The notes beneath the pieces were generated by a model, which worked only from the letters and a program-made list of their open reading frames with translations, had not been told where the DNA came from and did not search any database. Positions 19,839-53,423 of a DNA stretch of 64,000 bases are shown here, in pieces. The number at the start of each line of letters is the position of its first letter. Within the stretch, counting starts at the first letter, position 1. The stretch covers positions 384,001 to 448,000 of the forward strand of contig CAWECG010000003.1 in NCBI GenBank assembly GCA_963807605.1, written 5' to 3'. This DNA is from Candidatus Bathyarchaeota archaeon. Its GTDB lineage: Archaea; Thermoproteota; Bathyarchaeia; 40CM-2-53-6; RBG-13-38-9. The translations under genes and the position numbers were made by a program.

Positions 19839-21542
19839 GTGGCCGACGATCACTTGGATGATTATGCAAAGTGGGAGAGATGGGCGTACGAGCAGAGGTA
19901 CGGACAGGGAAGCTGGGACGCAGACCACAGCGTGAGTGAGGACACAAGGACAGAAGGACACGCAGGTTTCCGAGATTACAAAGATCCTTTCAAGACATAT
20001 TGGAGCGACGAGCATTCTATCGGCATTTTGGAGAGGGATAGGAAGTTCATCGGAGTTGCTTGCATAGTTGCCAAGGAAGTTGTAGACAAGGAGAGTTTTG
20101 TCAGAAGGTTCGGATTGAGCTTTGAGAAGGACATTCAATGGAAAGCTGCCGCTAGTCTTCTAGATCATCTCTCAAGATCTCCTTTGTTCAAAGCAGTTCT
20201 CGTCACAGTCAACAAGGTTCCTTTCAAGCTTGAGCCAGATGTACCTGAGGAATTGCAGGGAAGAACGAACTGGTCAAAGAGAAATTACGAGTTCCATAAA
20301 GACAAAGCTGACACGTTTAAGCTCCAACTTGAACAGCAGAGGAATTCTCCTGTGTTTGGCGGGCCTTTTCCAAAATATTTGCCAAAGCAGATGAAGGAAG
20401 AGGAAGATTATGCCAAGAAGTTCCTCGAACTGTCCAAAAGCCTGGAGATGCAGGCTCAAGAACATCTCAAACAGTATTTCTTGATAAAGGAAAACCTGTT
20501 TGTTGCTGCTCTGTTTCTCTACGTCTACACAAACCCATCCGATGACTTTAATCAAACTGTTAACGACATCCTTGCCAGAAGAAGAGCAGCCGAGATTGAA
20601 GCGAACCTGACTTACTTCGTCAAATGCTCGCCAGTCAAAGACCCTATAATCGCTCTCAGACCGGAGTTTTTTCTTCTTTGGGACGAGGTCCAACCATACT
20701 ACTCCTTAGCCCTAGCAGACGATTGCGCAGGTTTCGGCTCAAACAAAGAGATAGCGGCGATCATGAGGAAGATGTTTACTTCCGCATTAGAACTTCCAAA
20801 GGAAGAGTCAATCGAAGAACAAATTCACATACCTTCAGAGGAAGTCAGCCTCGAAGGACCAAGAAAGGCATTGCTTGGGTACATTGTCGAATCTGTTGTC
20901 AAGGGCAAGATTACAAAAAGGAGAGTGTACTTTCCTCTTGACGTTCTGACCGGACATGGAATAATCTTCGGTAAGACACGTGTGGGTAAGAGCTTTTTTT
21001 CCTTGATATTGATTCAGGAAGCTTTGGCAAATGGGATAAGAGTTGTTGTGTTCGACCCACACGGGACTCTGGCTAACAGACTGAAGGAGAATGAATTACT
21101 AAAAGTAGTGTACACTAAAGGAAAGGCAGACATCACAAGCGAACTGGAAGAGATCTACCAAGATGCTTCTGCTTGGCCTGAAACAAACGAACTGAAATTA
21201 CTAGTTGTACTTGATGAGACCAGGCTGTTAAGAGCGAAGAATCTTGCCCAATGTTTGAATGAACTAGGTAAACGGGGTTTAGGCTTCATTCTTGTGACGC
21301 AGTACTCGACGAGCATTCCACCTGAGGCAAGAAATCTTGGAACTTACTTTATCATGGCAGCCATGAGCGAGACTGAGATTCAACGCTTTAAGGAAGTGAC
21401 TCTACATCCAAGTTCAAAGTTGATAACAAGATTACCTAGGGCGACGAGTTTTATCTTTAGTCCCTACTGGTATCCTGAGCCGTTCTTTGTTAGACATCGA
21501 AAGATGACCGAGAGCAAGGTCTCAGGAGATGCTGTCAAATAG
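19839..21542 (+). CDS. DUF87/HerA-FtsK-VirB4-like P-loop ATPase
   Basis: HGIIFGKTRVGKS, VVVFDPHG, LVVLDE, ILVTQ. Confidence 0.8.
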   Translation: MADDHLDDYAKWERWAYEQRYGQGSWDADHSVSEDTRTEGHAGFRDYKDPFKTYWSDEHSIGILERDRKFIGVACIVAKEVVDKESFVRRFGLSFEKDIQWKAAASLLDHLSRSPLFKAVLVTVNKVPFKLEPDVPEELQGRTNWSKRNYEFHKDKADTFKLQLEQQRNSPVFGGPFPKYLPKQMKEEEDYAKKFLELSKSLEMQAQEHLKQYFLIKENLFVAALFLYVYTNPSDDFNQTVNDILARRRAAEIEANLTYFVKCSPVKDPIIALRPEFFLLWDEVQPYYSLALADDCAGFGSNKEIAAIMRKMFTSALELPKEESIEEQIHIPSEEVSLEGPRKALLGYIVESVVKGKITKRRVYFPLDVLTGHGIIFGKTRVGKSFFSLILIQEALANGIRVVVFDPHGTLANRLKENELLKVVYTKGKADITSELEEIYQDASAWPETNELKLLVVLDETRLLRAKNLAQCLNELGKRGLGFILVTQYSTSIPPEARNLGTYFIMAAMSETEIQRFKEVTLHPSSKLITRLPRATSFIFSPYWYPEPFFVRHRKMTESKVSGDAVK

Positions 21543-23021
21543 CGATCCATTCATTTCATGGCAACAGGAAGGACATCTGAATACGTCCATCGTATCCCCT
21601 CGCAGTGCGCCGCAAGCTGGACAGCGTCCTAAGGTCAATTTGCGGAAAGGAAACAGCAGTAACACACCTAATGTGATCATCAAGATGAACAGCAGATCTG
21701 GAGTGATAACTGCCGAGATGAAGAATACGATCAGTACCAGTTCCACCAGCAGAAACTTAGTATTCTTTGAGAAATATGGGTACGCGAACAATATCATTGT
21801 CATCACAAATGCAAGGAGAAGAGCAAGAGCAATCAAGGAGATCATGAGTACGGCGTTCAAAGCTGAAGCCAAGACAAGATCAGCGATAGCTCTTACTGCG
21901 TAGGTTTGGTAGCCAAGAAAGCCAATAGCGACACCGGCCAAGAATTTCAGGAGCTGAAGGAACAGTCTCAATCCCTTCATGGCCACTAGGAAAAAGAAAG
22001 GTAGAAACATTGTAGAAAAGAGAGTGAAGCTTGTTGTCAGTAAAGCGACTTCAGGAAGCAAAGTCACATTCCAAGCAAACTTGAAAGAGATCAGGGAGAT
22101 ACTGACACCAGATCTGAAAAACGCAAGGAGCAAACCCAGTGTCAATCCATACTCAATTCTGGGAATAAAGAGCCAACTATTGTCCCGCAGCATCTTGATT
22201 CTCTCTATGGCAGTTGGTCCTCCTTTGATCTTCTCCTGCCAACTACCTTTAGTAACGAACAGTTGAAGGTTCAAAATGAGTTTCATTGTTGTTTTTTGGA
22301 GTGAAGCAACTCTTGCATCTGCATAAGCTTCTCTAACCCTCAAGAGTTGACCATTCACTAGATAGATTGCCAGCGTCGGCACTAGATATAGCTCCCTCAA
22401 CCAGAACGAATGAAAATCGAAGAAGAATTCTGACACAAACGGTCGTGTCGCAAGAAAAAAGGTCGCGTGAACGATCAGAAGAATCAGGTAAGACTTTATC
22501 AACTTCTCCGCAATCGTATGTTTCACAAGATCCCTGTTTTTCAAATGAGAAAGCTCGTGAAGCATTGTTGATTCGACAAACTCGCGCTTTACGTAGAACA
22601 TCTTGCAAAACCCTTCACTAAGTGTCAAGTAGGTTTCTCTATGGTTTCCAAAGATCACTGCCCGGTAGTCTGTAGCATTTGACCACAAGATGGTTGGCGA
22701 GGATACATCTATCTCTCCGGAAAGCTGGTCTACGAAATTACGCAGCTCCGGACATCTTGAGTCGATTCTTTCGAGGTGCTGTTTTCTTATCTTCCTTTGA
22801 GGATCGTAAAGATAGAACAATAACGTAAGCAATGTCAAACCCATAACTGTTAAAAGCGAAAATGACGCGAAAATGATTTTTCCTACGATGCTGGTAGCCA
22901 GCGGGATTAGTCCGACATAAAGTGCTCCTATACTTATCGCTGGAGATACAGCAGTGATTACCAAAATGATGAACAAGATAGTATGATATGATGGAAAGGC
23001 GAATGGGTTTAGCCTATTCAT
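21522..23021 (-). CDS. M48 (HtpX-like) membrane metalloprotease with C-terminal zinc ribbon
   Basis: LHELSH, REAYAD, many TMs, CPAC...CPSC. Confidence 0.82.
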   Translation of the reverse strand: MNRLNPFAFPSYHTILFIILVITAVSPAISIGALYVGLIPLATSIVGKIIFASFSLLTVMGLTLLTLLFYLYDPQRKIRKQHLERIDSRCPELRNFVDQLSGEIDVSSPTILWSNATDYRAVIFGNHRETYLTLSEGFCKMFYVKREFVESTMLHELSHLKNRDLVKHTIAEKLIKSYLILLIVHATFFLATRPFVSEFFFDFHSFWLRELYLVPTLAIYLVNGQLLRVREAYADARVASLQKTTMKLILNLQLFVTKGSWQEKIKGGPTAIERIKMLRDNSWLFIPRIEYGLTLGLLLAFFRSGVSISLISFKFAWNVTLLPEVALLTTSFTLFSTMFLPFFFLVAMKGLRLFLQLLKFLAGVAIGFLGYQTYAVRAIADLVLASALNAVLMISLIALALLLAFVMTMILFAYPYFSKNTKFLLVELVLIVFFISAVITPDLLFILMITLGVLLLFPFRKLTLGRCPACGALRGDTMDVFRCPSCCHEMNGSLFDSIS

Positions 23022-23150
23022 CTCTCAGATCTCTCCATAACAAGCTCTTAATATCCTCGACAGCCAAGAGTATTTCCAGATACCTCTCCCTCAGCAATTG
23101 CACTGTCACTTGCTTGTTCTGGCTTTTTGTTTTCTGGCGTTCGTTAAAGC

Positions 23151-24749
23151 TCAGATTGCAGCTGTTGGACGCTCCCAGCCATCTAGAGTTATGAAGAATT
23201 CTTGGTTGATGGGATGCGAGCAATGCCGACATCGAAAAAGACTGAAAGGGACGATCGACTTACGACAGAACGGACACTTCGCATACTTGTTGGACATTAA
23301 TAAGAGACTCAAGCCAAAGAGAAGCACTGTAATTCCAATCGCGTAAAGAGCCGGCTCGCCCAAGTTTAGGATATGGATAAGCCATCCCATAGGTAGAAGA
23401 ACCAGAACAAAGTTGGGAATAAGTAACTTCAACTGCGGCCCAAGGTTAAGAGAAAAGAAAGAGAGACTGAACTGAAGTAGAAGCTTCTGAATAAGCAAGA
23501 ACATGTACGTGGCTATGAAGAGATAGAGCAACAGATCAATCCCCGGACGGAGCGGCAAGATCGTCAAAGTAAGCACTGAAGTCAACACTATGCTGATCTT
23601 CAAGGGCGTCACAAATGTATGGAAAAGGTCTTGTCGAGTGTTCCGAATGTTGCTGAGAATTGAGACCCAGAATGGCAAGCACATCAATAGGAAAATGAAA
23701 TAATTGGTTGCAAGAAAGAAAACACCTACAAACATAGAGAATGGCAGATATCCGATCACATTCCACACGATGGCCAAAGAGCCGAGAGAGAGAAAGCCAG
23801 ACAACCACGAAAATCCGCTAACCGCCGCGCAGATGAGTCCTCTTTCAATAGTGTGCCTGAAAATGTCTTGCTTTATGATTTTGATCCTTCGTGCTGAAGT
23901 TAGAAGAAAGGGAGAAAATAGTCTCGCAGGGAAGCTTGACTGTGGGAATCCGCTGAAAAAGCTTAGCACGTTGAGCATATTTCTGTCGGTTTTCTCAATA
24001 CATATAGTTCTGGCATCCGCGTAGATCTCTCTCCATCTTGCTATGACGTTGTTCAGATAGAAGACCGCAACAAGGGGAATCAGATAGACCAGCATAACCG
24101 CCGGCAACCAGTCAAGAATAAGATTATGGCTAGAAATTAGGGCAAAGAAAATACTGACAAAAGTGACCACAGCAAACGATCTCCATAGGCTTTCAGCGAT
24201 TTCATGTTGCACGAGATCTCTATTCTTGATATGTGATAGCTCGTGAATCAGAATCGTCTCTACCAAGGATTGAAAAGTGTGCCACTTTTCGCAGAGCCCG
24301 GTTGAAATCAAAAGCCTACCATGCTTTTCGGAGCCAAAGGCCAATGCATTTATTTCTGCACTATCGACGTAGAATGTCTCAGGAGTCTGCAAGTTCATTC
24401 GTTCGCACAGTTGTCGAAGAAGCGTAAGGATCTCTGGACGCTGGACTTCAAGCTTGTATTGTCCATATTTTTTCATCCTGCTTTTGATTGTGTGAGTGTA
24501 GAAAACATATGTCAGGACGGGAAACAGAAAGAGGTTGAACGGCGCAAGAACGATCAGAGGATACCTAGCAGGGTCCAACGTAAAAAGGGGATACAGGAAA
24601 TATGTAATGACTGAAACAGCTAGACTAGAAGCTGGGCCAACAAGAGACATCAACATATAGACGAAGTAAAGCGTTAGTTCTGATGGGAAGACGAATGGGT
24701 TAAGTAGCTTCCTTTCCTTCGCAGGATCCTCGACGCTGCACGAGTTCAA
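23151..24749 (-). CDS. M48 membrane metalloprotease paralog with C-terminal zinc ribbon
   Basis: INALAFG, IHELSHIKNRD, REIYAD, CPFC...CRHC; shares the LNPFxFPS start with its neighbour. Confidence 0.82.
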   Translation of the reverse strand: MNSCSVEDPAKERKLLNPFVFPSELTLYFVYMLMSLVGPASSLAVSVITYFLYPLFTLDPARYPLIVLAPFNLFLFPVLTYVFYTHTIKSRMKKYGQYKLEVQRPEILTLLRQLCERMNLQTPETFYVDSAEINALAFGSEKHGRLLISTGLCEKWHTFQSLVETILIHELSHIKNRDLVQHEIAESLWRSFAVVTFVSIFFALISSHNLILDWLPAVMLVYLIPLVAVFYLNNVIARWREIYADARTICIEKTDRNMLNVLSFFSGFPQSSFPARLFSPFLLTSARRIKIIKQDIFRHTIERGLICAAVSGFSWLSGFLSLGSLAIVWNVIGYLPFSMFVGVFFLATNYFIFLLMCLPFWVSILSNIRNTRQDLFHTFVTPLKISIVLTSVLTLTILPLRPGIDLLLYLFIATYMFLLIQKLLLQFSLSFFSLNLGPQLKLLIPNFVLVLLPMGWLIHILNLGEPALYAIGITVLLFGLSLLLMSNKYAKCPFCRKSIVPFSLFRCRHCSHPINQEFFITLDGWERPTAAI

Positions 24750-25546
24750 GAACTACACACAATCTTCTTCAGTCTGCGCAAGCGTTCCTCAACAAGCGTT
24801 TGTTTTCCCAGATATCTTTCTCTCAATATTTCGTAGTAATTCTTGCTCACTCTGCCTTCGCTGAAGCCCTGTTCTAATTGTCTCAGTGTATTCTTGATAT
24901 TGTACAGTTGACTGTTGAAATCCGTAACATCCTCGATCAGGGAGAGAAACCTTTCCTCCTTTTCATGCTCATCCTCTATGGATATCGCTGCAACTAGTTG
25001 GCCTATGTCATCCGCAGACATGAAGTGCAGCTCTCTCTCGCTGAACGCCGACCTGTAGTGAATAGCCATCTCCTTAATTCTTTTTCTTAGAGTGTGGAGT
25101 CGTTCTTCTAGATCATTCTCAGTGATCTGACCCTTTGCAAAACTTACGTAAATCTCATCCCATTCTTTAGCTATCACTTTTCTCTGGTGCTTTAGCCAAT
25201 CCGTGTTTATTTGACTCTTCAATTCCTCAGAATAATCCTCGGATTTCAGTATGTTTTCAGGTGGCTCAATCAGAACCTTTCCATCTTCCTGAATGAAACA
25301 TATGGGGAAACTATCAATGCATTTCCCCGCCTTCTTGTCATGAGGTACATCATATCTTACTTTTCTCCAATGCTCCTCAACTATCACTATCGGTATTGTT
25401 ACTTTAGCTGAACCGCCGCTGGGAATGGCGACCCGCATGTCTACGTACCGAAGTTTCATGCTTAACCCTACCAGGGGAACCATGATAAAATTCCATCGAT
25501 GACCGGTAACAATAGCAGAACGGTAACATCGCTCTTCTGACCGCAA
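24746..25546 (-). CDS. hypothetical coiled-coil protein (two SHOCT-like G.I/VS..Y motifs)
   Basis: KGQITENDL, EGRVSKNYYE; 4-bp overlap with the M48 gene; true start uncertain. Confidence 0.6.
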   Translation of the reverse strand: MRSEERCYRSAIVTGHRWNFIMVPLVGLSMKLRYVDMRVAIPSGGSAKVTIPIVIVEEHWRKVRYDVPHDKKAGKCIDSFPICFIQEDGKVLIEPPENILKSEDYSEELKSQINTDWLKHQRKVIAKEWDEIYVSFAKGQITENDLEERLHTLRKRIKEMAIHYRSAFSERELHFMSADDIGQLVAAISIEDEHEKEERFLSLIEDVTDFNSQLYNIKNTLRQLEQGFSEGRVSKNYYEILRERYLGKQTLVEERLRRLKKIVCSS

Positions 25547-28058: not shown

Positions 28059-28303
28059 TCTTTAAGAAATGATGATAAGAAGGTACAGCGGGTAGAGAGC
28101 TTCAAGAAGTATTTTAGTTCTGACTAGAACCAGCTTCTGATAATAGCTTTTCTGACATTACCAGACTTTACGTTCCTTCACATGCCCATCCCAATTTTTG
28201 ATATCCAGCAATCGCTCTTGCGAGTGGTTACTGGCCTGGTAGGCTCCTCAGGATACAGCCAGCAATGGCTGTTTGAAAGCGAGCCAAGAAAGAGGTGAAA
28301 AAT

Positions 28304-28984
28304 ATGGTATATCGAAAAGTTGTGCCGCAGGGCCTTTTGAACCAGAACAGAGTTGTCGTCGAGGGATCTCCGGATGAATGTCTTCCAAGCGGACAGGTGT
28401 ACGTTTCACCAGCGTCTGGAAGAGTATACAACCGAGACAAAGGCGATAAGCTAGCGAACCTACCGCAGGACGCAACTGAGATCCCAAAGACAACCTGGTG
28501 GTTGAAGGCCCCGCAACTGTGGAGAGGGAGAGGAGCAGACAAAGCTCCTCAAACCCCTTTTCCAGTTCCAAAGTCTGTCGCGGAAGCAAGTCAGGAGACA
28601 CATTGGTACTTCACTCCAATCGGAATAGAGCGACTCAAAACCGAATACCAAGAGATGAAACGATACTTTCCAGACTTCGAGCTGTACCAAGACGACCTTG
28701 GCATGCTGTTGTGGATGGGCAAACTCGAAGGCTTGGGCGAAATAAGACTTCACTATCCTGCCGATTATCCAATCAGTCCTTTCAACGTAGCCGTGATGGA
28801 CACAACTGAATCAAAGGATGTCAAATTGAACGAAAAGATATCTGAGTACAGAACACTCGGCATCACACCGACCGGCGCATTGATCGTGGTTTTGAGATTT
28901 TTCCTAAAGGAGAGAGGAGCAAATGTGGTATCAGACAATCCAAGGACAGAGGAGACTCCAAGTAGAGATAGAACAGATGCGTAG
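28304..28984 (+). CDS. candidate ubiquitin-like N-domain fused to a Cys-less E2/UBC-like (UEV-like) domain
   Basis: GAGGTGA before ATG 28304; ERLKTEYQEMKRYFPDF...WMGKL...YPADYPISP is a UBC-fold signature; no Cys in this domain. Confidence 0.65.
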   Translation: MVYRKVVPQGLLNQNRVVVEGSPDECLPSGQVYVSPASGRVYNRDKGDKLANLPQDATEIPKTTWWLKAPQLWRGRGADKAPQTPFPVPKSVAEASQETHWYFTPIGIERLKTEYQEMKRYFPDFELYQDDLGMLLWMGKLEGLGEIRLHYPADYPISPFNVAVMDTTESKDVKLNEKISEYRTLGITPTGALIVVLRFFLKERGANVVSDNPRTEETPSRDRTDA

Positions 28985-29273
28985 GAATACTTCATTCTCG
29001 CTCAATCGAGACGATGAAAACGGAAAGCTTGCTTGGAAAGGCCATCTTGGCGGCCACGAAATTCTGCTTGAGTATTCTGACAGTCATCCGGGCGAAAAGA
29101 TGCGAGTATACGTATCGAACCCGCGACTGCCATCCGTTAACCTTCACATCCATTCTGACGGCACTATCTGTTACATGAAGGATCAAGAGTGGAGCCCTGA
29201 CTGGACTGCGTATACTGTCTATCTGACAATAATCAGGTTTCTGGATGATTTCCACAGAGGCAGAATGATATGA
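28923..29273 (+). CDS. E2 ubiquitin-conjugating enzyme-like protein
   Basis: RRLQVEIEQM, WKGHL, HIHSDGTICY (catalytic Cys), EWSPDWT. Confidence 0.82.
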   Translation: MWYQTIQGQRRLQVEIEQMRRNTSFSLNRDDENGKLAWKGHLGGHEILLEYSDSHPGEKMRVYVSNPRLPSVNLHIHSDGTICYMKDQEWSPDWTAYTVYLTIIRFLDDFHRGRMI

Positions 29274-30571
29274 TTCATCCGAACAAAGTAATCATCCACA
29301 GAGACGTTCTTCGAGAGATCCGCGAGGACGTGAAGCATTGGAGTGAAAGACAATTGGAGTCCGGCGGCTATCTTCTGGGCAATATCCACACACCGACTCT
29401 AGTTCTTGAGATCACTGATTTCATAGATGGAGGACCAAATGCAATACACACCGGGATTAGTTTCTCACCTGACAATGAATATGCAACCGTGGCTAAAGCA
29501 GAGCTTCAAGCAGCTAAGCCAGATATTCGTTTGGTCGGCGAGTATCACCTTCATCCTTGGAGCGGTTATCCTCGTCCGAGTGGAGGGGACAAACACCAGC
29601 TTCAGCAGATCAAGAACAGCCTAAGACCATGGTATGTCATAATGTTAGCAACACCCAATGGATTCAGGCTTTGGGACTTGGATGAAGAAACAGCGTTCAC
29701 CGAATTGCCTCACCAAGTCATCCGGGTCTCAACACGCATCGATCAAACAGAATTGCTTAACAGGATCTCAGAAATCACACAGCATGAGCTTCTTGCAAAG
29801 AAACGGGTCACAATAATCGGTCTGGGTAGCGGCGGCTCAGTAATATCGAAATATCTTGGAAACACCGGAATTGGCAACTTCATTCTCATCGACGATGAAA
29901 GACTTGAACTTACAAACGTAATTCGTCATGAAGGGACACTAGAAGAGATAGGGAGGCCCAAGACTGAGATCTGCAAGAGAATTATTGAACTGCACAACCC
30001 GTTTGCAGTCGTCAAGACATTTGAGATAGATGTCCTAGAGGAGAAAAACAAATTCGAGGAAATCGTGACAAGCTCAGACCTGGTTATAGCATCCAGCGGT
30101 AATGCAAAAGTCAATAATCTGATCAACAAAATTTCCATTGAAAAGAATATTCCGGTAGTGTACGGCGGCATCTTTGAAAAGGCATCCGGAGGCTATGTCC
30201 TTCCAGTAATTCCTAACAGAACCGCATGCTTCAACTGCCTGTTCAATTTGACAGCGCAATCGTACCATGTAGATAAATCAGCTGCACAAGCATACAATGT
30301 TCCCGAGGCAGAACTACACAACCAACAAGGACTATGGATAGACATATCGATACCCGCTCTCTTTTTGGCAAAGTCTGCGTTGATGATACTCCAGGGAGAA
30401 GTGCTTGAGCACAACCTGCTGTTATACAAGAATCCATTCGATCTCAAGAAGTTCAAAATAGACAGAAGAGGCGACTGCTCAGTCTGCAATTTTGACGGAT
30501 GGCTAGAGAAGCAAGAAGTTCAAAACAAGAAACGATCAATTTTCTCGAGGTTCAAGAGAGCCAGACAGTAG
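29270..30571 (+). CDS. JAB/MPN+ isopeptidase fused to ThiF/MoeB-type E1 activating enzyme
   Basis: ESGGYLLG and EYHLHP...PSGGD (JAMM); IIGLGSGGS, IDDERLELTNVIRH, IGRPK, CFNC...CSVC. Confidence 0.88.
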   Translation: MIHPNKVIIHRDVLREIREDVKHWSERQLESGGYLLGNIHTPTLVLEITDFIDGGPNAIHTGISFSPDNEYATVAKAELQAAKPDIRLVGEYHLHPWSGYPRPSGGDKHQLQQIKNSLRPWYVIMLATPNGFRLWDLDEETAFTELPHQVIRVSTRIDQTELLNRISEITQHELLAKKRVTIIGLGSGGSVISKYLGNTGIGNFILIDDERLELTNVIRHEGTLEEIGRPKTEICKRIIELHNPFAVVKTFEIDVLEEKNKFEEIVTSSDLVIASSGNAKVNNLINKISIEKNIPVVYGGIFEKASGGYVLPVIPNRTACFNCLFNLTAQSYHVDKSAAQAYNVPEAELHNQQGLWIDISIPALFLAKSALMILQGEVLEHNLLLYKNPFDLKKFKIDRRGDCSVCNFDGWLEKQEVQNKKRSIFSRFKRARQ

Positions 30572-30581
30572 CTCTCCACAC

Positions 30582-31262
30582 ATGATTTCTTTGGTGACTG
30601 GAATGAGCAGTACACAGAATATTTGGCAGGTTCTAGAGCAAACATTGGCGCGAGTTAACAATCGACTAGGTCAAGTTGAGAACAGGCTCGTCCAACTTGA
30701 AAACCAGCAAGAAAGACCACGAACGATGTTCAGTGAGAGAAGGGTTGTCGAGGCTGCCGGGCTTCTTGGTGGGAGAGAACTTCTAACCTCTGCAGATAAT
30801 AGCATCACAAGAGTAACACACCAACCAGTCTGCGATATATGCGGTCGCGTATTACGAATTGAGGACGAAGAATTCAGCATCTGTCGTTCATGTGGAAAGA
30901 AGCTGTGCCGAGAATGCGGAATAAAATACTCGAGTGCACTCTATTGCATTGCCTGTCTTAGGCGACAGGTTCCTCTCGAGAAAGCCTCGTACAAAATCCT
31001 TGTAGCAGTGGCAAACTGTGTAACTCGGGCAAGCACAATAGCTGAGCTGGTTAAGTTACCGAGGAAGAACGTGGAAGACCGACTGACCGAACTATTCAAC
31101 ACTAATCTGATCATGAAACAAGGTCTTTCAATATTCTCTCGGATCTCTGTTACCGCCGAAGGACTGGAAGCTATCGGGGTCTTTCGTGGAGCGTACGGGT
31201 CAGACGAGGATGCCCTGCAGTTTGACAGTGAGTTACGCAGATACTTGATGACCCGAGGGTGA
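30582..31262 (+). CDS. coiled coil + 8-Cys binuclear zinc finger + winged helix protein
   Basis: CDIC-x13-CRSC-x4-CREC-x9-CIAC; TIAELVKLPRKNVEDRLTEL...VTAEG. Confidence 0.75.
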   Translation: MISLVTGMSSTQNIWQVLEQTLARVNNRLGQVENRLVQLENQQERPRTMFSERRVVEAAGLLGGRELLTSADNSITRVTHQPVCDICGRVLRIEDEEFSICRSCGKKLCRECGIKYSSALYCIACLRRQVPLEKASYKILVAVANCVTRASTIAELVKLPRKNVEDRLTELFNTNLIMKQGLSIFSRISVTAEGLEAIGVFRGAYGSDEDALQFDSELRRYLMTRG

Positions 31263-31266
31263 GGTT

Positions 31267-31467
31267 GTGGGCTTCAGAGATTCAATGGACAGAGCAATAA
31301 CCGCGTTGATCGTTCTGGGCTTGGCCCTCTTCAGCATTGGGCTGATTTCATGGATCGCCAATCTACTGCAGAGATACAACCTATCATGGGAACTTCAACT
31401 AGCCGCGATTGGTGTGGTCTTGATTCTTCTCGCGTCGATTGCTGCGAAGCTATTCTCAAGAGATTAA
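31267..31467 (+). CDS. small 2-TM protein
   Basis: Two hydrophobic helices; sits within the operon. Confidence 0.6.
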   Translation: MGFRDSMDRAITALIVLGLALFSIGLISWIANLLQRYNLSWELQLAAIGVVLILLASIAAKLFSRD

Positions 31468-33682
31468 GTCTGAACAAAATGCCGGTCTGGGTGATAGACT
31501 CTTGGTAGAACACACGTTTGCAGCAAACAGCATCAGAGAGCGCAAAGAAAAAGTTGCCCAGCTTCTTGACAAACAACTGGTTCGATCATCAATACTCTCC
31601 CAACTTGCGGATGACACGACTGATTCAATAGAGGGCGACCTAAACGCATATCTCACTATCCATTATCTTCCAGAACTCGCCGGAGAAGTTCCAGTATTCA
31701 ACTATCCAGATCCGACCACAGCGGACGGCGATTTTCTAATCGGAGCAATCAACGATCACAACAAAACGTTTCGATTCGCCACACGAAAGCAGGAGATGAT
31801 TCGCCATCTCCTTTTTGCAGGCTCAAGCGGAAGTGGTAAGACCAATCTGGCTCTGCTGCTAGTCAGTCAGTTTCTCAGAAAAGGCAAGCCCTTTCTCGTG
31901 GTTGACTGGAAGCGCAACTATCGTGACCTGATTACTCTCCCTGAAGCAACCGGCAAGGAAATACTAGTCTTCACGGTCGGCCGTGAAGTCTGTCCATTTC
32001 ACTTCAATCCGTTGATACCGCCGAGAGGAACCAGCCCACACGTCTGGCTTTCAAAACTGATCGAAGTTATCTCACACGCTTACTACTTGGGTGAGGGCGT
32101 GGAGTACCTACTGTGCAAGGCAATCGATTCAGTTTACAGGCAATTCGGTGTATATGATAGAAGCAACAACTGGCCAAGCTTCAGGAACGTGCTCTCATAC
32201 CTAGAGAGCTACGACTGCAAGGGAAGAGAGTCACAATGGCTTGCTTCTGCATTGCGTGCGGTCGCAGCCCTTTGTTTCGGAGAGATGGACAGAATAGTCA
32301 ACCATGGCAACTACCCAATAGATAGAGTTCTGACTAAAAATGTGGTCCTTGAGGTTGATGCTCTACCTGACTCGGCTAAGATATTCCTGACAGAGTCACT
32401 GTTACTTTGGATTCATCATTTCAGAATGGCTGAAGGAAAGAGGGAGACCCTAAAGCACATTTGCATTCTTGAAGAAGCTCACCACATCCTCTCAAGAAAA
32501 CTGCAGATAATATCTGGCACTGAAACCATAACAGACATCCTCCTCAGAGAAGTCAGAGAGTTCGGCCAGTCTGTGATAGTGATCGACCAGGACCCAAGCT
32601 TACTCTCAATTCCTGCGCTAGGCAACACTTACACCACGGTCTGTTTTGGCCTGAAAGAGAGAAGTGACATAAATGTCATGGCCGCAGCGCTAAACCTCGA
32701 TTACAGGGACAAAGATATCTTAACCAAGCTTGAGGTCGGTCATGCTATAGTTAAGCTTCAAGGAAGATGGCCCGAACCTTTCCTTATCGAAATCCCAAGA
32801 GTCGACATCCACAAAGGATCTGTAACTGACGAACAGCTCAAAGACCAAATGGCATGGTTTTACAAGGAATTAGGACAAAATCGAACCGAAACACAGCCAC
32901 TAGAAGAATCTAGAGAAATTATGCCTCGGAATAAAGAGCAAACAAGTAAAGATCAAACAAGAGAAAAAGGCCAACTGGCACACCAAGAAACAGAAGAGAA
33001 GGTAAGAACTCAAGAACCAAAAAGACAAACAGAAAATATTGCAGGGAAACAAGGCACAGCCAAAACAGAGATAGAATCAGGGGAGTTAAGTGAAGCAGAA
33101 AGAGAGCTACTGATTGACATTCTAAGAAATCCACTAAGCAAGGTAACAGATCGGTACGCAAGATTAGGACTGAACGAATATCAGGGAAACAAAGCCCAAA
33201 CAAGACTGGCTGAAAAAGATCTAATAAGAACCGAGATGCTGCCCGCATATCAAAAGAGGGGCTATTGGGGCAAGGCCTTTGAACTCACGGAGAAAGGGCA
33301 ACAGACTCTCGCTACACTCGGTCATATGCAACCACAGCAGACCAAAAGAAAAGGAGGACTCCAGCACAAACACATCACAAAACTGCTCGCAGAAAAACTC
33401 CGGACTCAAGGCCATCAAGTCCAAGAAGAATATCAGCTAGGCTCTGGCGAAGCAACTGATTTACTGGTGGACGGACAAACAGCAATCGAAATCGAGAGAA
33501 GCACCAGGAACTCGGCAGACAATGTCAAGAAGAACCTCGCACATGGCTTCACAGTTCTGGTAGTCGCTGAGACGGCTTCCCTAAAGTCAATTCTCAGAAA
33601 ACTTCTAGCTGAGCAAGGCCTCGGCTCAGTCGTGGTGATGGAAGTAAAGGAGCTACTGAGCAGTGGGCTCCCCGCAGTTTAA
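31439..33682 (+). CDS. DUF87/HerA-VirB4-like ATPase with C-terminal wHTH and PD-(D/E)XK-like nuclease
   Basis: HLLFAGSSGSGKT, ICILEEAHH, REVREFG, VIDQ; GGLQH...QEE...TDLLV...AIEIE. Confidence 0.85.
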   Translation: MLRSYSQEIKSEQNAGLGDRLLVEHTFAANSIRERKEKVAQLLDKQLVRSSILSQLADDTTDSIEGDLNAYLTIHYLPELAGEVPVFNYPDPTTADGDFLIGAINDHNKTFRFATRKQEMIRHLLFAGSSGSGKTNLALLLVSQFLRKGKPFLVVDWKRNYRDLITLPEATGKEILVFTVGREVCPFHFNPLIPPRGTSPHVWLSKLIEVISHAYYLGEGVEYLLCKAIDSVYRQFGVYDRSNNWPSFRNVLSYLESYDCKGRESQWLASALRAVAALCFGEMDRIVNHGNYPIDRVLTKNVVLEVDALPDSAKIFLTESLLLWIHHFRMAEGKRETLKHICILEEAHHILSRKLQIISGTETITDILLREVREFGQSVIVIDQDPSLLSIPALGNTYTTVCFGLKERSDINVMAAALNLDYRDKDILTKLEVGHAIVKLQGRWPEPFLIEIPRVDIHKGSVTDEQLKDQMAWFYKELGQNRTETQPLEESREIMPRNKEQTSKDQTREKGQLAHQETEEKVRTQEPKRQTENIAGKQGTAKTEIESGELSEAERELLIDILRNPLSKVTDRYARLGLNEYQGNKAQTRLAEKDLIRTEMLPAYQKRGYWGKAFELTEKGQQTLATLGHMQPQQTKRKGGLQHKHITKLLAEKLRTQGHQVQEEYQLGSGEATDLLVDGQTAIEIERSTRNSADNVKKNLAHGFTVLVVAETASLKSILRKLLAEQGLGSVVVMEVKELLSSGLPAV

Positions 33683-34259: not shown

Positions 34260-34841
34260 ATGTTGCCTGAGAACGAGCTCAAAGTCCTCGCGGCTTTCTT
34301 TCCTGAAGATGGAGATAAGACCATACAGGAATTGCGAGAAGCGGCTGGCTACTCATACGAGAGGGTCTACTCCTCACTAAACTCACTTGTGAATAAGCGT
34401 ATTGTGTCAAGGAGAAAGGTGGGCCGCACATTAGTCTATACTATAGACACATCTAACGATCTGGCCCTTCTAGCTTTCACTTATCATACCATCAGCAGGA
34501 GAACATCACTTATGGGTAGGTATTCAACAGTTGGGAAGGCGTTAGCAGAGTTTCTGGCAAAGGCTAAGACGGATATAGTGGTTCTTTTCGGCAGTTACGC
34601 CAAGGATGAAGCTAAAGAGGGTAGCGACGTCGATATTCTCTGTGTTAACGGTAGAGCTGATGTGGAAAGGATTGCATTGTCCCTGAGACACAAATTCAAT
34701 CTAAGGATCACTCCGGTCTTGATGGCCAAGGATGATTTTCTGAACATGAAGAAGGAGAATCCGGAATTTTGGCGTGACCTCGTTCAATTTGGAGTGGTCT
34801 TGAAGGGGCATGAACAGTACTACAGCCTAGTCTACAGGTGA
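34260..34841 (+). CDS. wHTH + minimal nucleotidyltransferase (MNT antitoxin)
   Basis: N-terminal wHTH; VLFGSYAK...SDVDIL. Confidence 0.85.
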   Translation: MLPENELKVLAAFFPEDGDKTIQELREAAGYSYERVYSSLNSLVNKRIVSRRKVGRTLVYTIDTSNDLALLAFTYHTISRRTSLMGRYSTVGKALAEFLAKAKTDIVVLFGSYAKDEAKEGSDVDILCVNGRADVERIALSLRHKFNLRITPVLMAKDDFLNMKKENPEFWRDLVQFGVVLKGHEQYYSLVYR

Positions 34842-34859
34842 TTCTGAGGCGAAGTATGT

Positions 34860-35396
34860 TTGGAAAGGAACATCAACTGGTTCATACACCAAGGATTACT
34901 TTTGAAGACTCCTTTCATAAGGAGACTTGCTCCAAGGTTGCAAGACAAGGCGCGAAGTAACCTCATCACTATGAATATTCTCTTCGATCTCTACAGCAAT
35001 GAAGGGGCCAGAAGGGTACTGAACATTCCAGATGAGTATGATCCTGGAGAGTGGGTTGTGATCTCAGGGTACTATGCAATGTACATGATGAGCTTAGCTG
35101 CCCTTTCAAAGATAGGCTTCAGAAGCAAGAATCATGCGGCCACGGCTGTCGCTCTGGAAACCTTCTTTGTTAAGAAGAAGCTGCTTGAACCAGAGATTCT
35201 GAAAATGCTTGAGAATGCAAGGCTTGAGAGAGAACAGATAGAACAGTTGAAACTGGCAAAACAGAGGCGGGAGATAGCTCAATACAGCGTGACGAAGGAG
35301 ACCACTCGAAAGATTGCGGAGAACATACGGGGAGATGCTTTCAAATTTGTTGAGAGATTGGAGGCACTAATCGAGAGCTTGCCGTTGACTGCCTGA
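34860..35396 (+). CDS. HEPN domain protein (MNT-HEPN partner)
   Basis: GYYAMY..LAAL, SKNH, RREIAQY. Confidence 0.8.
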   Translation: MERNINWFIHQGLLLKTPFIRRLAPRLQDKARSNLITMNILFDLYSNEGARRVLNIPDEYDPGEWVVISGYYAMYMMSLAALSKIGFRSKNHAATAVALETFFVKKKLLEPEILKMLENARLEREQIEQLKLAKQRREIAQYSVTKETTRKIAENIRGDAFKFVERLEALIESLPLTA

Positions 35397-36077: not shown

Positions 36078-37352
36078 TCATGGGCCTTTCATTATTACCC
36101 TTCCGTCAGGTAGTGTCATCATAGGTTCCCATCCTTCGTCTATGAACTTCTCGATTTCATCAACTCTTACAACTTTACGGGAGGAGTCTTTCTTTGAAGT
36201 GTCCTCGTTGCGGTTCTGACCCTGAGAGAGAACTTGCTGTCCTTTCTCGGTTACTAGCTGAGATACGAGATCTTCGAGCTGCCTTAGCCGCTCCTCCAAC
36301 TGTTGACGGGAAAGCTGAGACTCACGTCGGACCTCCTCAGCCTCAGAGATTGTTAGCAGAGGCACAGCCTTAAGATAGTCTTCCAGAAGGTCCTTCTCTA
36401 TCGGCCTATAGTAACTGTCGGATATGCCTGTTGAGTGACCCATCAAAGTCTCAACATTGATAGGCTTCATGACCTGCTCTGCCCTAGTTTTGAAGAACTT
36501 TCTTATTGAGTGAATGGAGAACTCATGTCTTCTCTTCTTCTCCTTTCGCAGTCCGAATTTCCAGAGCATATCCTCGAAGAGTCGCCTTACACCCCTGACC
36601 TGCAGCCTTCTTGGTTTGTTGATGTCGCCCTCGTGAAGGTTCTTTACTGTTTGCCATCTATCCCTAATCAACGGTGAATCTCCAGCTATTTTCTCTCCCT
36701 GAGAAGCACGCAACTGCACGTACTGCTCTAGCTTCCGATAGGCTTCAGGCGTTATGAATGTCTGGTACTCTTCTGATTCACCGGCATAGACACGAAGTTT
36801 TGCGGCAACAACCTTCCCATCCGTCTTTATGGGCTCCACATGCCCCCAGTTGAGATACTCCCACGCGCCGATCCTGATTCCACTGCTCGCCATGGTGAGA
36901 ATGATTGCTTGGAACCTCAGATCCGAGTTTGTTACAAGCAGTCTTAACTCATCAATGGTCGGTGCCCTGTCAAGCGCATATCTTCTTGCACTCGGCAAAA
37001 GTCGCGAAATCTTCTTCCAGTTTATCCCCGAGACATCATTCATCTCCAGGAGCAGCTTAACAGGCTTCTTCATATTGCCGACAGTGCTAGGCTCTATCTC
37101 CTTTCTGGATGCTCTCTCCTTTTCATTCAAGAGAAAACTAAGAATCTGATTCTGAGCCCAGCGGGAATTCTTCTTAGCCTTCCCAACAAAACTGTCAACA
37201 TCCATGCCAACATATTCTAGGAAAGTGGCAAGTCTCCGCTGGTAGATTTCGCGCGTAGTAGGGCTCTTGATAGCCTCAAGAAAAAGCTTCGAGGCTTTGC
37301 CCTCAAGTAAGGAAAGATCCTTGAGCTTCCTACCAGCTGGCAACTCAATCAA
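36078..37352 (-). CDS. tyrosine recombinase/integrase (next to tRNA 3' end)
   Basis: SSGIRIG (R), HSIRKFF, LMGH, SDSYY (Y). Confidence 0.9.
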   Translation of the reverse strand: MIELPAGRKLKDLSLLEGKASKLFLEAIKSPTTREIYQRRLATFLEYVGMDVDSFVGKAKKNSRWAQNQILSFLLNEKERASRKEIEPSTVGNMKKPVKLLLEMNDVSGINWKKISRLLPSARRYALDRAPTIDELRLLVTNSDLRFQAIILTMASSGIRIGAWEYLNWGHVEPIKTDGKVVAAKLRVYAGESEEYQTFITPEAYRKLEQYVQLRASQGEKIAGDSPLIRDRWQTVKNLHEGDINKPRRLQVRGVRRLFEDMLWKFGLRKEKKRRHEFSIHSIRKFFKTRAEQVMKPINVETLMGHSTGISDSYYRPIEKDLLEDYLKAVPLLTISEAEEVRRESQLSRQQLEERLRQLEDLVSQLVTEKGQQVLSQGQNRNEDTSKKDSSRKVVRVDEIEKFIDEGWEPMMTLPDGRVIMKGP

Positions 37353-37409
37353 AAATATGATGCCTACGGCTCGATATAAATTTTGAGCCCACTTCTAGAC
37401 GCAATAATG

Positions 37410-37529
37410 TGGCGGGCCCGCCGGGAATTGAACCCGGGACCCCGACCCAGGACACACTTTGTGTCTCCTTCCGGGTGGCCTCCAAAGTCGTTAAAAGCCC
37501 GGTACTCTACCTGACTAAGCTACGGGCCC
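37410..37529 (-). tRNA. tRNA-Lys(UUU) with two introns (37/38: 37477-37491; 43/44: 37443-37470), CCA encoded
   Basis: GGGCCCG acceptor, CCGGG-CTTTTAA-CCCGG anticodon arm, GTTCAATTC T-loop. Removing the 15- and 28-nt BHB-bounded inserts gives a 77-nt cloverleaf. Confidence 0.92.
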
Positions 37530-37593
37530 GTCCTTATTGTCCCTAACTAATCCTTATATCTTTGTCTCTTCCATGTGTTTCTTTGGGTCAGGG

Positions 37594-38937
37594 ATGGTAA
37601 GGACAAGCTATAACCATGCTTTGGTTAAAAAAGCTTCACAACTTGTTGGTAGTAGTGAGGCGGTTAGGAAGTGGTATGATGAGATTTCATTCACAAAACA
37701 GCCTCGTACAAGCTGCGATTATGTCAATGAACTTGCATGTTTTTGTGAGGATGTTAAGAAGACGCCTGAACAGCTTCTCGAGTTAAATGCCAAACACGCT
37801 TATGAACTCATGAAAGGGTGGGCGGGTCAGAAGATTAGGTTAAAGGTATATTCTCTTAAGACTGTCCATGCTCGATGGTATGCTATTCGGAGTTTCTTCA
37901 AATTTCATGAGATCGAGATCAAAGACGATTTTCCAATCCCGCATATCCGAACTAAGTTTTCTGATAAGATACCTACACGAGAGGATCTTCGTCAGATTCT
38001 TAATGCTGCCTCCTTTTTTAACACAAAGATTGGTATCCAGCTTCTCGCTTATTCTGGAATTCGACCTGAAGACATTTGTGATTTGACCTATGCTTCAATA
38101 AAACATGATTTCGAGAAAGAGATCTATCCTTGCTCTGTGTACGTGGCGCAGGGCAAAACGGGTGATGTTTATGTTACCTTCATGCCTCGTCAGACTGTAG
38201 AGACAATCAAGCAATATTTTAAGTTGAGAACTAAAAAGGGTGAGAAGATCGAGGATAACACCCCACTTTTGCGATGCCAAAGAGGAAAAGAGGTTAGAGG
38301 CATTAGGCGGAGAACCTTAAGCCACAAGATTAGGGAGGTTCTATTAAAGAGTGGAGTGGAAATAAAGGTAGAAATCGGTGATAGAATCAGGCGGATGCGT
38401 CCTTATAGTCTCAGGAAGTACTTCAGAAGCAACCTCTCAAGTGAAATGCAGACCGAGTTCAGTGAAGCTCTGGTTGGACACATAACGGGTTTGGCTCAAA
38501 TTTACAATGGGATTAGAGACTTGGATCCTGCTGCAATTGAGAGAATGAGAACAGCCTACTCTAAAGCGGAGTCCTTCCTTCTCGCTGATGGTGTAAATAT
38601 AGAGGGTCTACAAGAGATGTCTAAGAAGCTCAAGAATAATGAGGAGGAGTTGGCGTCTATTCGTTCTGAACTAATAGAATATAAGAAAGAAGAACTACAA
38701 CGGACAAAGAGACACATGATTCAAGAACTTCAAAGATTTAAACAGATTTCCAAGACCGAGGAAGAATTCCTGTCCAACTTTGATGGTTACATAGAAGGTT
38801 ATATCGAGGGTATCAGAAATTTGGCTGCGCAGGAAAAACGACCGCTGAGCGAAAGGGAAATGGCGGAAATCGCGCTAATTCAGACTATCACTACAGAAAC
38901 AAAAAGGGCTGTGTTCCGTGCTACTCCCATGGTTTAA
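37594..38937 (+). CDS. tyrosine recombinase/integrase (next to tRNA 5' end)
   Basis: AYSGIRPED (R), QGKTG (K), YSLRKYF, LVGH, AQIY (Y). Confidence 0.9.
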   Translation: MVRTSYNHALVKKASQLVGSSEAVRKWYDEISFTKQPRTSCDYVNELACFCEDVKKTPEQLLELNAKHAYELMKGWAGQKIRLKVYSLKTVHARWYAIRSFFKFHEIEIKDDFPIPHIRTKFSDKIPTREDLRQILNAASFFNTKIGIQLLAYSGIRPEDICDLTYASIKHDFEKEIYPCSVYVAQGKTGDVYVTFMPRQTVETIKQYFKLRTKKGEKIEDNTPLLRCQRGKEVRGIRRRTLSHKIREVLLKSGVEIKVEIGDRIRRMRPYSLRKYFRSNLSSEMQTEFSEALVGHITGLAQIYNGIRDLDPAAIERMRTAYSKAESFLLADGVNIEGLQEMSKKLKNNEEELASIRSELIEYKKEELQRTKRHMIQELQRFKQISKTEEEFLSNFDGYIEGYIEGIRNLAAQEKRPLSEREMAEIALIQTITTETKRAVFRATPMV

Positions 38938-51870: not shown

Positions 51871-52791
51871 ATGCGTGTGCGTCGACAGACAACTGTTTAT
51901 AGAAAGGAAAGTGATTTTGTGAAGGAAATTGACTCGGGGCCTCCTTCACGAATCTGGCTCCCCATCTATTGTTTAGATAAGCTGAAAGAGATTATTACGG
52001 CCACAAAGTTCCAAAAATTGATATTTCTAATCCAGACCGAAGGGAAGACCAAGAGCTGGTTTGATTATCACTGGCATCACTTCGGCCCTTACTCTCAAGA
52101 TCTTAGAAATGACCTTTCTGCCCTATGCAGTCAAGACTTGATAAACATAGAACCAATGACAACTACAAAGGGCTTCGAGACAAATAGATACTCGATACTT
52201 GCACAAGGGCAGTCACTTCTTGAAACCATGGTTCTAGAACCAGAGATCAGAGATGATTTGCGCCGAGTCGACAAGATAATAGACAAGTATGGTAGACTGA
52301 ACTACCAAGAGATCTTGGAGATAGTATACGCTCGATATGACCTTGACTTGAATGAGCTAACAAAGAAACTGGAAGCGAACCTCTGGTCACTGAACAAGAA
52401 CTGGCTACAGCTCTACAAAATGAAATCAGACTGCATATACTGCACCTATGCCTTAGCGATGATTGAATACTCAGAAACGATACTAGATAAGATCTTGAAC
52501 AAGAGTATAGACAAACTCACGAGACAGATCTGTCTCAGAACCATCAATGACATGATTAACCATCTAGGCGAAGTCACCTCTGTCTGCTCTAACTTCAAGA
52601 CTTGCCCCTTCGACTGCAAACCGCAAGCCAAAGAATGCATCGAATACTTCGAATTTCTCCAGAAATACTGTCAGGACAAACAGATCTATCCAGCCGTGGA
52701 AGATCTGAAGCTTTCCGACATCATGGCTCCAGAGCAAATCGACAAAATGCTTGAGGATTTCCAGCAGCAAGTGACCTCGATCGTGAATTGA
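51871..52791 (+). CDS. DUF4065/SocA-like (Panacea-type) antitoxin domain protein
   Basis: TKFQKLIFL, HFGPYSQDL, IIDKYG...IVYARY. Confidence 0.75.
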   Translation: MRVRRQTTVYRKESDFVKEIDSGPPSRIWLPIYCLDKLKEIITATKFQKLIFLIQTEGKTKSWFDYHWHHFGPYSQDLRNDLSALCSQDLINIEPMTTTKGFETNRYSILAQGQSLLETMVLEPEIRDDLRRVDKIIDKYGRLNYQEILEIVYARYDLDLNELTKKLEANLWSLNKNWLQLYKMKSDCIYCTYALAMIEYSETILDKILNKSIDKLTRQICLRTINDMINHLGEVTSVCSNFKTCPFDCKPQAKECIEYFEFLQKYCQDKQIYPAVEDLKLSDIMAPEQIDKMLEDFQQQVTSIVN

Positions 52792-53423
52792 CTGAAATTG
52801 CTTCCACTGTCGTTTTCCTGGATGCTAACATTTGCATAACATACGCAATAGAATTCTTCATCAAAGACCACATGTTTTCAGATAACGTATATCACTCTAA
52901 GATTTGCTGTGTCATTAGTCACATCTCCTCCAGGAAGGATATCTATGACATAAATATACCCGAATTCATTAGGGGCGAGATTACCCGTAAATTAACTGAA
53001 GTATTCAATAGGACATTCGATAATTACAATGTTTCACACGTCTATAGACTGAAATTTATCTCGAAGGGCACGGAGAGGCTGAAAAAACTCCTGCAACGCT
53101 CAGAATCGCTAGAATTGGTTATTGACGAAGAGATCAAAGAGATAAACAGACTCTATGCGGAACTCTTAAGGAAAGGAGATGCTCGCATAGCAAAGCTAGT
53201 CCAAAAGAAAGGGCATCCAAAACCATCAGACAACGACATCAAACTCGCAGCTCAGGCAATCAAAATGGTAAGACAAGGCCGATGGGCAATTCTAATAAGC
53301 GGAGATTTTGACATTCATGGATTCTGGGAGGACTACGAGAAAACCTTTCGTCTGAAGATATTCTCCTACGAGAGACTACCTGCTGAGCCTTCAGAAATTG
53401 ACAAAGCATTTTTGAACTTGTAA
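52788..53423 (+). CDS. PIN-domain protein (putative toxin)
   Basis: VFLDANI, E, SDNDIKL, ISGDFD; TTGA overlap with upstream gene. Confidence 0.7.
   Translation: MTEIASTVVFLDANICITYAIEFFIKDHMFSDNVYHSKICCVISHISSRKDIYDINIPEFIRGEITRKLTEVFNRTFDNYNVSHVYRLKFISKGTERLKKLLQRSESLELVIDEEIKEINRLYAELLRKGDARIAKLVQKKGHPKPSDNDIKLAAQAIKMVRQGRWAILISGDFDIHGFWEDYEKTFRLKIFSYERLPAEPSEIDKAFLNL

Follow-up and report, generated by a model that had tools for sequence, protein, structure and literature searches.

In the window (the whole 64-kb stretch of DNA analysed here) an ATG at position 28304 opens a plus-strand gene for a protein of 226 aa. As the first-pass annotation of this DNA had stated, the start is preceded by a Shine-Dalgarno-like sequence, GAGGTG (28292–28297, plus strand), and a comparable motif is found at homologous loci. 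The first 66 residues (28304–28501, plus strand; the N-domain below) end in Trp65-Trp66, occur elsewhere as a free gene and are the candidate modifier considered here. They are followed by a variable, low-confidence linker (residues 67–99; 28502–28600, plus strand), whose length is very different among homologs, and then by a Cys-less domain of the UBC/UEV fold with a tail (domain residues 100–204; 28601–28984, plus strand). This domain is a degenerate duplicate of the product of the next gene; it matches the UEV domain of Tsg101 (Z 9.2, rmsd 3.0, 111 residues aligned) and BubB (Z 7.7, rmsd 3.1, 98 aligned), and has no conserved Ser-His pair.

The next gene (28923–29273, plus strand) encodes a small E2 of 116 aa with Cys83 in an H..G.IC..W.P motif; none of the 18 intact E2 rows aligned lacks the Cys. 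Overlapping its end is a gene for a JAB-E1 fusion (29270–30571, plus strand) with JAB residues E30/H93/H95/S104/D107 and the ATP and zinc motifs of the E1 intact, and the JAB metal site and both E1 motifs are likewise kept among some 55 homologs. The E1 is a single ThiF domain whose crossover carries Tyr342 (59 of 60 rows) and no Cys. Gly277 and Asn282, at the positions of ThiF Asp127 and Arg132, are each present in 54 of 55 rows. We considered these two residues as an adaptation of the E1 to a bulky end and dropped the idea, since Cap2 shares the Gly yet rejects Trp, and outgroup E1s keeping Asp and Arg/Lys also have aromatic-ended partners. Further downstream on the plus strand lie genes for a protein with a coiled coil, a Cys-rich zinc finger and a winged helix (30582–31262), which accompanies archaeal-type operons, for a two-helix membrane protein (31267–31467) whose position is conserved, and for a HerA/DUF87-type ATPase (31439–33682), operon-linked in most loci long enough to tell.

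Codons 63–68 of the 226-aa gene read ACA ACC TGG TGG TTG AAG, and in the +1 frame the Trp-Trp-Leu codons (28496–28505, plus strand) become Gly-Gly-stop. It had been proposed that a Gly-Gly-ended ubiquitin-like modifier (Ubl) is masked here by an indel or +1 frameshift. On re-reading, the letters are literally as described: the +1 frame ends QRQPGG-stop, and its TGA (28503–28505) overlaps an in-frame TTG at 28502. The same TTGA had been likened to a coupling at 52788, where a stop/start overlap is indeed real (open reading frames 51871–52791 and 52788–53423); however, TTGA occurs 458 times on the plus strand of the window, and the in-frame TTG is not conserved, being CTG in L005, L006 and L011–L013. 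Since TGG TGG N gives Gly-Gly in the +1 frame whatever the base N, and four of the six Leu codons give a +1 stop when Leu-Lys follows Trp-Trp, the hidden Gly-Gly-stop is a side effect of two Trp codons. In this genome, six of 118 Trp-Trp pairs yield Gly-Gly-stop in the +1 frame, and 248 of the 1685 open frames of at least 200 codons hide one in another frame. The occurrence at the junction does not exceed chance, and we regard it as a by-product that carries no signal.

Homologs bear directly on the frame. The four full-length homologs of the 226-aa protein (88, 68, 68 and 48% identity) all keep PKTTWW, and at the DNA level frame 0 is open and fused in 11 of 11 other loci (48–88% identity; some of them nearly identical; assemblies from ENA, JGI and Logan), none of them split or in a shifted frame at the junction. 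Most variable columns, on either side of the junction, are third codon positions of frame 0 (21 before it, against 9 and 7 at the other positions, and 24 after it, against 8 and 6), a pattern indicating that both sides evolve as frame-0 coding sequence. An assembly error common to all these samples is not credible, and the 226-aa gene is almost certainly a genuine in-frame fusion.

Two observations might still speak for a Gly-ended Ubl that is concealed by a single-base error, by programmed +1 frameshifting or by a small spliced intron: the +1 Gly-Gly-stop is shared by the window and the homologs of 66–88% identity, and three fused members of the wider N-domain family (P0017, P0010 and P0011) have Gly at position 66. 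We give this explanation next to no chance. The Gly-Gly is forced by the Trp pair, the +1 stop is lost at 48% identity (L007 and L008, TTC AAA), and the +1 residues ahead of Gly-Gly vary (P, L, H). Conservation of a shifted-frame stop or slippery site beyond what the protein demands was not seen in these loci, as L007/L008 and the TTG to CTG changes illustrate; tRNA-Trp would re-pair poorly on GGU; and free homologs are ended by true stops at WW, WY or WF. Colinear homologs and frame-0 codon variation speak against a tRNA-type intron at the junction as well.

The boundary near residue 66 that the first-pass annotation had drawn is borne out by more remote relatives. The close homologs are all fused, as just described; profile searches with residues 1–66, by contrast, recover free proteins (n=15, 65–99 aa) that all end 0–6 residues after W-[W/Y/F] and never earlier, four of them exactly at position 66 and one of these four in WW. 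Their terminal motif is E-x-P-[R/K]-T-T-W-[W/Y/F]. The free gene of the Chloroflexia copy (L019) ends Trp-Trp-stop, the same pair as residues 65–66 in the window, and stopping at 66 is found in at least two supported branches of the N-domain tree. In each of the five free-gene loci read in DNA a true stop is followed by a Cys-E2 gene and then by a JAB or JAB-E1 gene, inside which two of the five contigs end. In P0021 and P0026 a Cys E2 follows the N-domain directly within one protein.

Position 65 is aromatic in 35 of 35 aligned rows (alignment A7). At position 66 we count 15 W, 14 Y, 5 F, 1 H and 3 G (n=38, a set that includes close relatives and to which P0017 was added by eye), that is W/Y/F in 34 of 38, while position 67 is unconstrained. 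The expectation that homologs would end in Gly or Gly-Gly therefore fails, Gly standing at 66 in three of 38 only; a Gly-Gly in the tail is seen in two of the 15 free members (P0033 and P0024). Nor was another plausible Gly-ended small gene common to the 13 operons scanned. The N-domain had no usable match in Pfam, NCBIfam, PADLOC, PDB sequences or the ESM Atlas, and we found no description of the family in the literature searched, of which coverage was partial. Judged from these alignments, residues 1–66 represent a real, unnamed small protein family with two terminal aromatic residues in place of Gly. Because it accompanies activating, conjugating and trimming enzymes wherever its neighbours are readable, the family could represent a novel type of protein tag.

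Several variants were seen in passing. In L027 (9052–9540) and L028 (9079–9585) the N-domain is shortened to about 45 residues, keeping a VYxSP hairpin and an RSTW-aromatic end, which suggests a minimal functional core. In P0013 a zinc ribbon and a HAD-type hydrolase-like domain (recognised by eye) replace the E2 after the N-domain. L033 (2780–5613) carries genes for a JAB-like protein and a Cys E2, a 66-aa ORF with a DPATG hairpin ending in GFF plus five residues, and then a Tyr-type E1; the likeness of this ORF to the N-domain family is not significant (hhalign probability 0.5%). Finally, an outgroup operon in genome G498 of the same class (L037, 7677–8246, minus strand) encodes a Cys E2 that starts QWY behind a short N-terminal extension ending PTRWY, and continues with a JAB gene and an E1 with crossover Tyr in which Asp/Lys are kept. 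This suggests that aromatic-ended partners reach beyond the N-domain family. In L037 the WY that closes the partner and the QWY that opens the E2 come one after the other, in tandem, and so are distinct motifs in that operon.

Modelled alone, the N-domain reaches a pLDDT of 63, and within the full-length model 55–87 by ten-residue block. The model has strands at 3–5, 18–20, 31–34, 41–43 and 58–61, single bridges at 26 and 49 and a short helix at 50–52. We take this order of elements to be that of ubiquitin minus helix 1; the same comparison would set [R/K]62 at Arg72 and Trp65-Trp66 at Gly75-Gly76. Foldseek, VIA, HMM and Atlas fold searches gave nothing significant for the N-domain. VIA listed three matches among 48,161 chains, two of which are Ras-association beta-grasp domains matched weakly (Z 2.5, rmsd 3.2, 56 aligned; Z 2.0, rmsd 3.9, 60 aligned), and the top Foldseek rows are U-box domains, not significant (E 0.5 or worse, TM 0.26). 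Such blank searches show neither a new nor a different fold. On the model, the N-domain is probably a ubiquitin-like fold whose main helix has been lost, with W-[W/Y/F] standing in the place of ubiquitin's Gly-Gly.

Complex prediction of residues 1–66 with the JAB-E1 dimer and ATP scored 0.40 against 0.00 for the best control, with contact agreement of at least 72% and partner pLDDT of at least 61 across the runs. The mark applied is reached by 58 of 80 solved and two of 110 mismatched pairs, and scores of 0.60 or under among pairs reaching it belong to seven solved pairs and both mismatches, so that 0.40 gives weak support. The prediction gives no interface, and the E1 and JAB sites are therefore indistinguishable as the place of contact.

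Drawing on the fusion, its boundary, the conserved catalytic residues and the gene linkage, we propose, with a probability of roughly 55%, that the JAB domain cuts the precursor after Trp66 and frees an aromatic-ended, probably helix-less ubiquitin-like modifier. The suggestion that a Ubl-E2 precursor releases about 66 residues through the JAB protease is in this form the best-supported reading, with an aromatic end and not the Gly that had been assumed. The first 66 residues would be the operon's modifier, made as a precursor; after cleavage the E1 would adenylate the freed Trp carboxylate, Tyr342 of the crossover might take the modifier as an oxyester, as in BubCD, and Cys83 of the separate E2 would receive it as a thioester before passing it to a target. 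The target may be chosen by the Cys-less E2 together with the zinc-finger/winged-helix protein, for which we infer a possible role as target adaptor, and the JAB domain could also remove the modifier from its target. The wider proposal, that helix-less Ubls are conjugated through a C-terminal Trp, Tyr or Phe from a Tyr-type E1 to a Cys-type E2 on integrated elements of uncultured archaea and bacteria, we hold more tentatively, at somewhat below even odds.

The chemistry of activating an aromatic end is the strongest objection to the precursor reading. ThiF-like enzymes do adenylate ends other than Gly (Asn by MccB, Ile by IndF; PMC12596934), but Cap2 rejects a C-terminal Trp (PMC10097602), and no described Ubl activated through an aromatic residue was found in the literature searched. 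The bulky residues would be kept out of the E1 site if JAB stripped the aromatic pair too and left residue 64, where Thr is commonest, as the mature end. Position 64, however, may hold T, S, I, R, E, H, P or G, whereas an aromatic residue always stands at 65. A tail that is to be removed is as a rule not conserved, and we regard this variant as very improbable.

Also counting against a modifier are the shortened domains of about 45 residues, the Gly at 66 or in the tail of some members, and the distribution of a WY motif at the start of the E2s. E2s beside free N-domain genes are without this N-terminal WY in five of five split operons, and the direct fusions P0021 and P0026 have one WY common to N-domain and E2; a docking role fits these two facts as well. 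The main rival reading accordingly makes the N-domain a non-covalent E2 accessory (an adaptor or an E3-like hairpin) whose aromatic pair docks in the pocket for the E2's N-terminal WY, the E1 activating some other substrate, which could be a small molecule, a Ubl of the host or the C-terminus of another protein. The U-box rows heading the Foldseek output, non-significant as they are, and four ThiS/MoaD-type genes in the genome would agree with it. In the window operon, however, both E2 domains carry their own WY, so that no pocket is vacant, and yet Trp65-Trp66 is invariant; L037 has both motifs in tandem; and the intact JAB would be left without a substrate inside the operon. We consider such an accessory unlikely, though a serious competitor.

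Scores of the E1 against MccB and ThiF/MoeB are close to its score against UBA5, and ThiF-like enzymes form macrocycles and phosphoramidates from non-Gly ends (PMC12596934). Together with the linked membrane protein and DNA-type ATPase, this would allow the N-domain to be activated at its aromatic end for an acceptor other than a protein lysine, giving a ThiF-type, RiPP-like peptide product through self-cyclisation or transfer to a lipid, nucleic acid or metabolite. With the operons we saw neither an RRE domain nor a transporter, nor any consistent tailoring enzyme. The operon moreover has a Cys E2 and a JAB protease, which to our knowledge are not parts of known RiPP clusters, and a peptide product appears improbable.

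Among known systems the precursor scheme comes closest to Type I Bub (the 6E.1/DUF6527 operons with BubAB, BubCD and BubE, class 6e of PMC1779556), in which a Ubl-E2 fusion is cleaved by JAB and the E1 works through a crossover Tyr, Tyr370 of BubCD relaying the modifier (doi 10.1101/2024.11.21.623953). Both have a small N-terminal partner on a Cys-less E2 fold, a JAB-E1 fusion with intact JAB site and an invariant crossover Tyr without Cys, and Tyr342 is a candidate counterpart of BubCD Tyr370. BubA, in contrast, is an evident beta-grasp with a conserved C-terminal Gly, where the junction here is W-[W/Y/F], and BubB works by Ser-His, where here there is a second E2 with Cys. BubCD itself is distant, lying outside the best 60 PDB matches of the JAB-E1 family profile and giving E 0.19 to an outgroup E1, and BubE (DUF6527, PF20137) has no match in this 94% complete genome, in a search whose control was positive. 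At the level of sequence the operon resembles Type I Bub in layout and E1 type but is not Bub, and departs from it in the junction Gly, the Ser-His E2 and BubE.

With BilABCD (types I and II; doi 10.1101/2023.09.26.559546) the proposed pathway shares a JAB-trimmed modifier precursor, a Cys E2 and the lack of a RING E3, but the Bil Ubl is a Gly-ended beta-grasp and its E1 a large protein with two adenylation-type domains and a catalytic Cys domain, as opposed to the minimal, Cys-less ThiF type found here. As in type II CBASS with Cap2/Cap3 (PMC10097602), the conjugated partner need not end in Gly-Gly and a Gly occupies the ThiF Asp127 position; the CBASS substrate, however, is a CD-NTase ending in Gly or Ala, with Trp rejected, and no CD-NTase was identified beside the window operon. 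Two further loci from Clostridia MAGs, L025 and L026, are ordinary type II CBASS, the CD-NTase of L026 ending GRFA. MccB and IndF (PMC12596934) use ATP and a homodimeric ThiF fold to activate C-termini other than Gly, as we propose for the E1, and differ in acting on short peptides, in having a leader-binding domain and in having no E2 or JAB. The N-domain system is neither Bil nor CBASS, and is an uncatalogued variant of prokaryotic ubiquitin-like systems.

The operon probably lies on an integrated element, since an integrase and an intron-containing tRNA-Lys (36078–37529, minus strand) are found 3–4 kb to the right of the HerA/DUF87 ATPase, marking the right-hand end of what is probably a 65-kb island, and the tRNA-Lys 3' end has a 17-base copy 65 kb to the left (C3:356470–356486). 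The tRNA-Lys, with a 39-base intron, is flanked by two integrases (36078–38937 of the window), and its 5' part has a 23-base copy 36 kb to the right (C3:457698), consistent with two elements using the two ends of tRNA-Lys. Upstream of the operon are two M48-type peptidase genes and a 266-aa gene (21522–25546, minus strand), M48 genes also preceding the operons of L027 and L028; and between ATPase and integrase lies an HTH-nucleotidyltransferase and HEPN pair (34260–35396), a probable toxin-antitoxin module. At other loci, split-type operons adjoin a coupling-protein-like ATPase with Replic_Relax (L014, 4345–7660) or DUF87 ATPases and an integrase or recombinase (L019 and L021, the latter next to SmpB). 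The L027 and L028 operons have restriction-modification neighbours. Judged by such context, mobile islands included, the most likely role of the N-domain system is in defence or in control of the element.

The system is rare and unevenly distributed. Of 401 genomes in the class, two gave a match to the JAB-E1 profile, the match in the second genome being to a distant E1, and the system is also present in one Chloroflexia MAG and one Nitrososphaerales MAG. Searches of 100 relatives, of 400 genomes of the phylum, of 400 genomes of the Chloroflexia host's phylum (that host excepted), of plasmids and of viral contigs did not find the N-domain.

For the reading of genomes, a +1 Gly-Gly is an automatic consequence of Trp-Trp and ought not to be taken for a recoding signal. 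For the family, the E1/E2 systems that we found described use the modifier's Gly, or Ala in some CBASS. If our proposal is true, natural activation of an aromatic C-terminus would break this Gly/Ala rule and would combine the Tyr-based E1 chemistry of the Bub type with a Cys E2. It would also account for some E1-E2-JAB operons that seemingly have no modifier, the modifier having been overlooked because searches target Gly-ended small genes.
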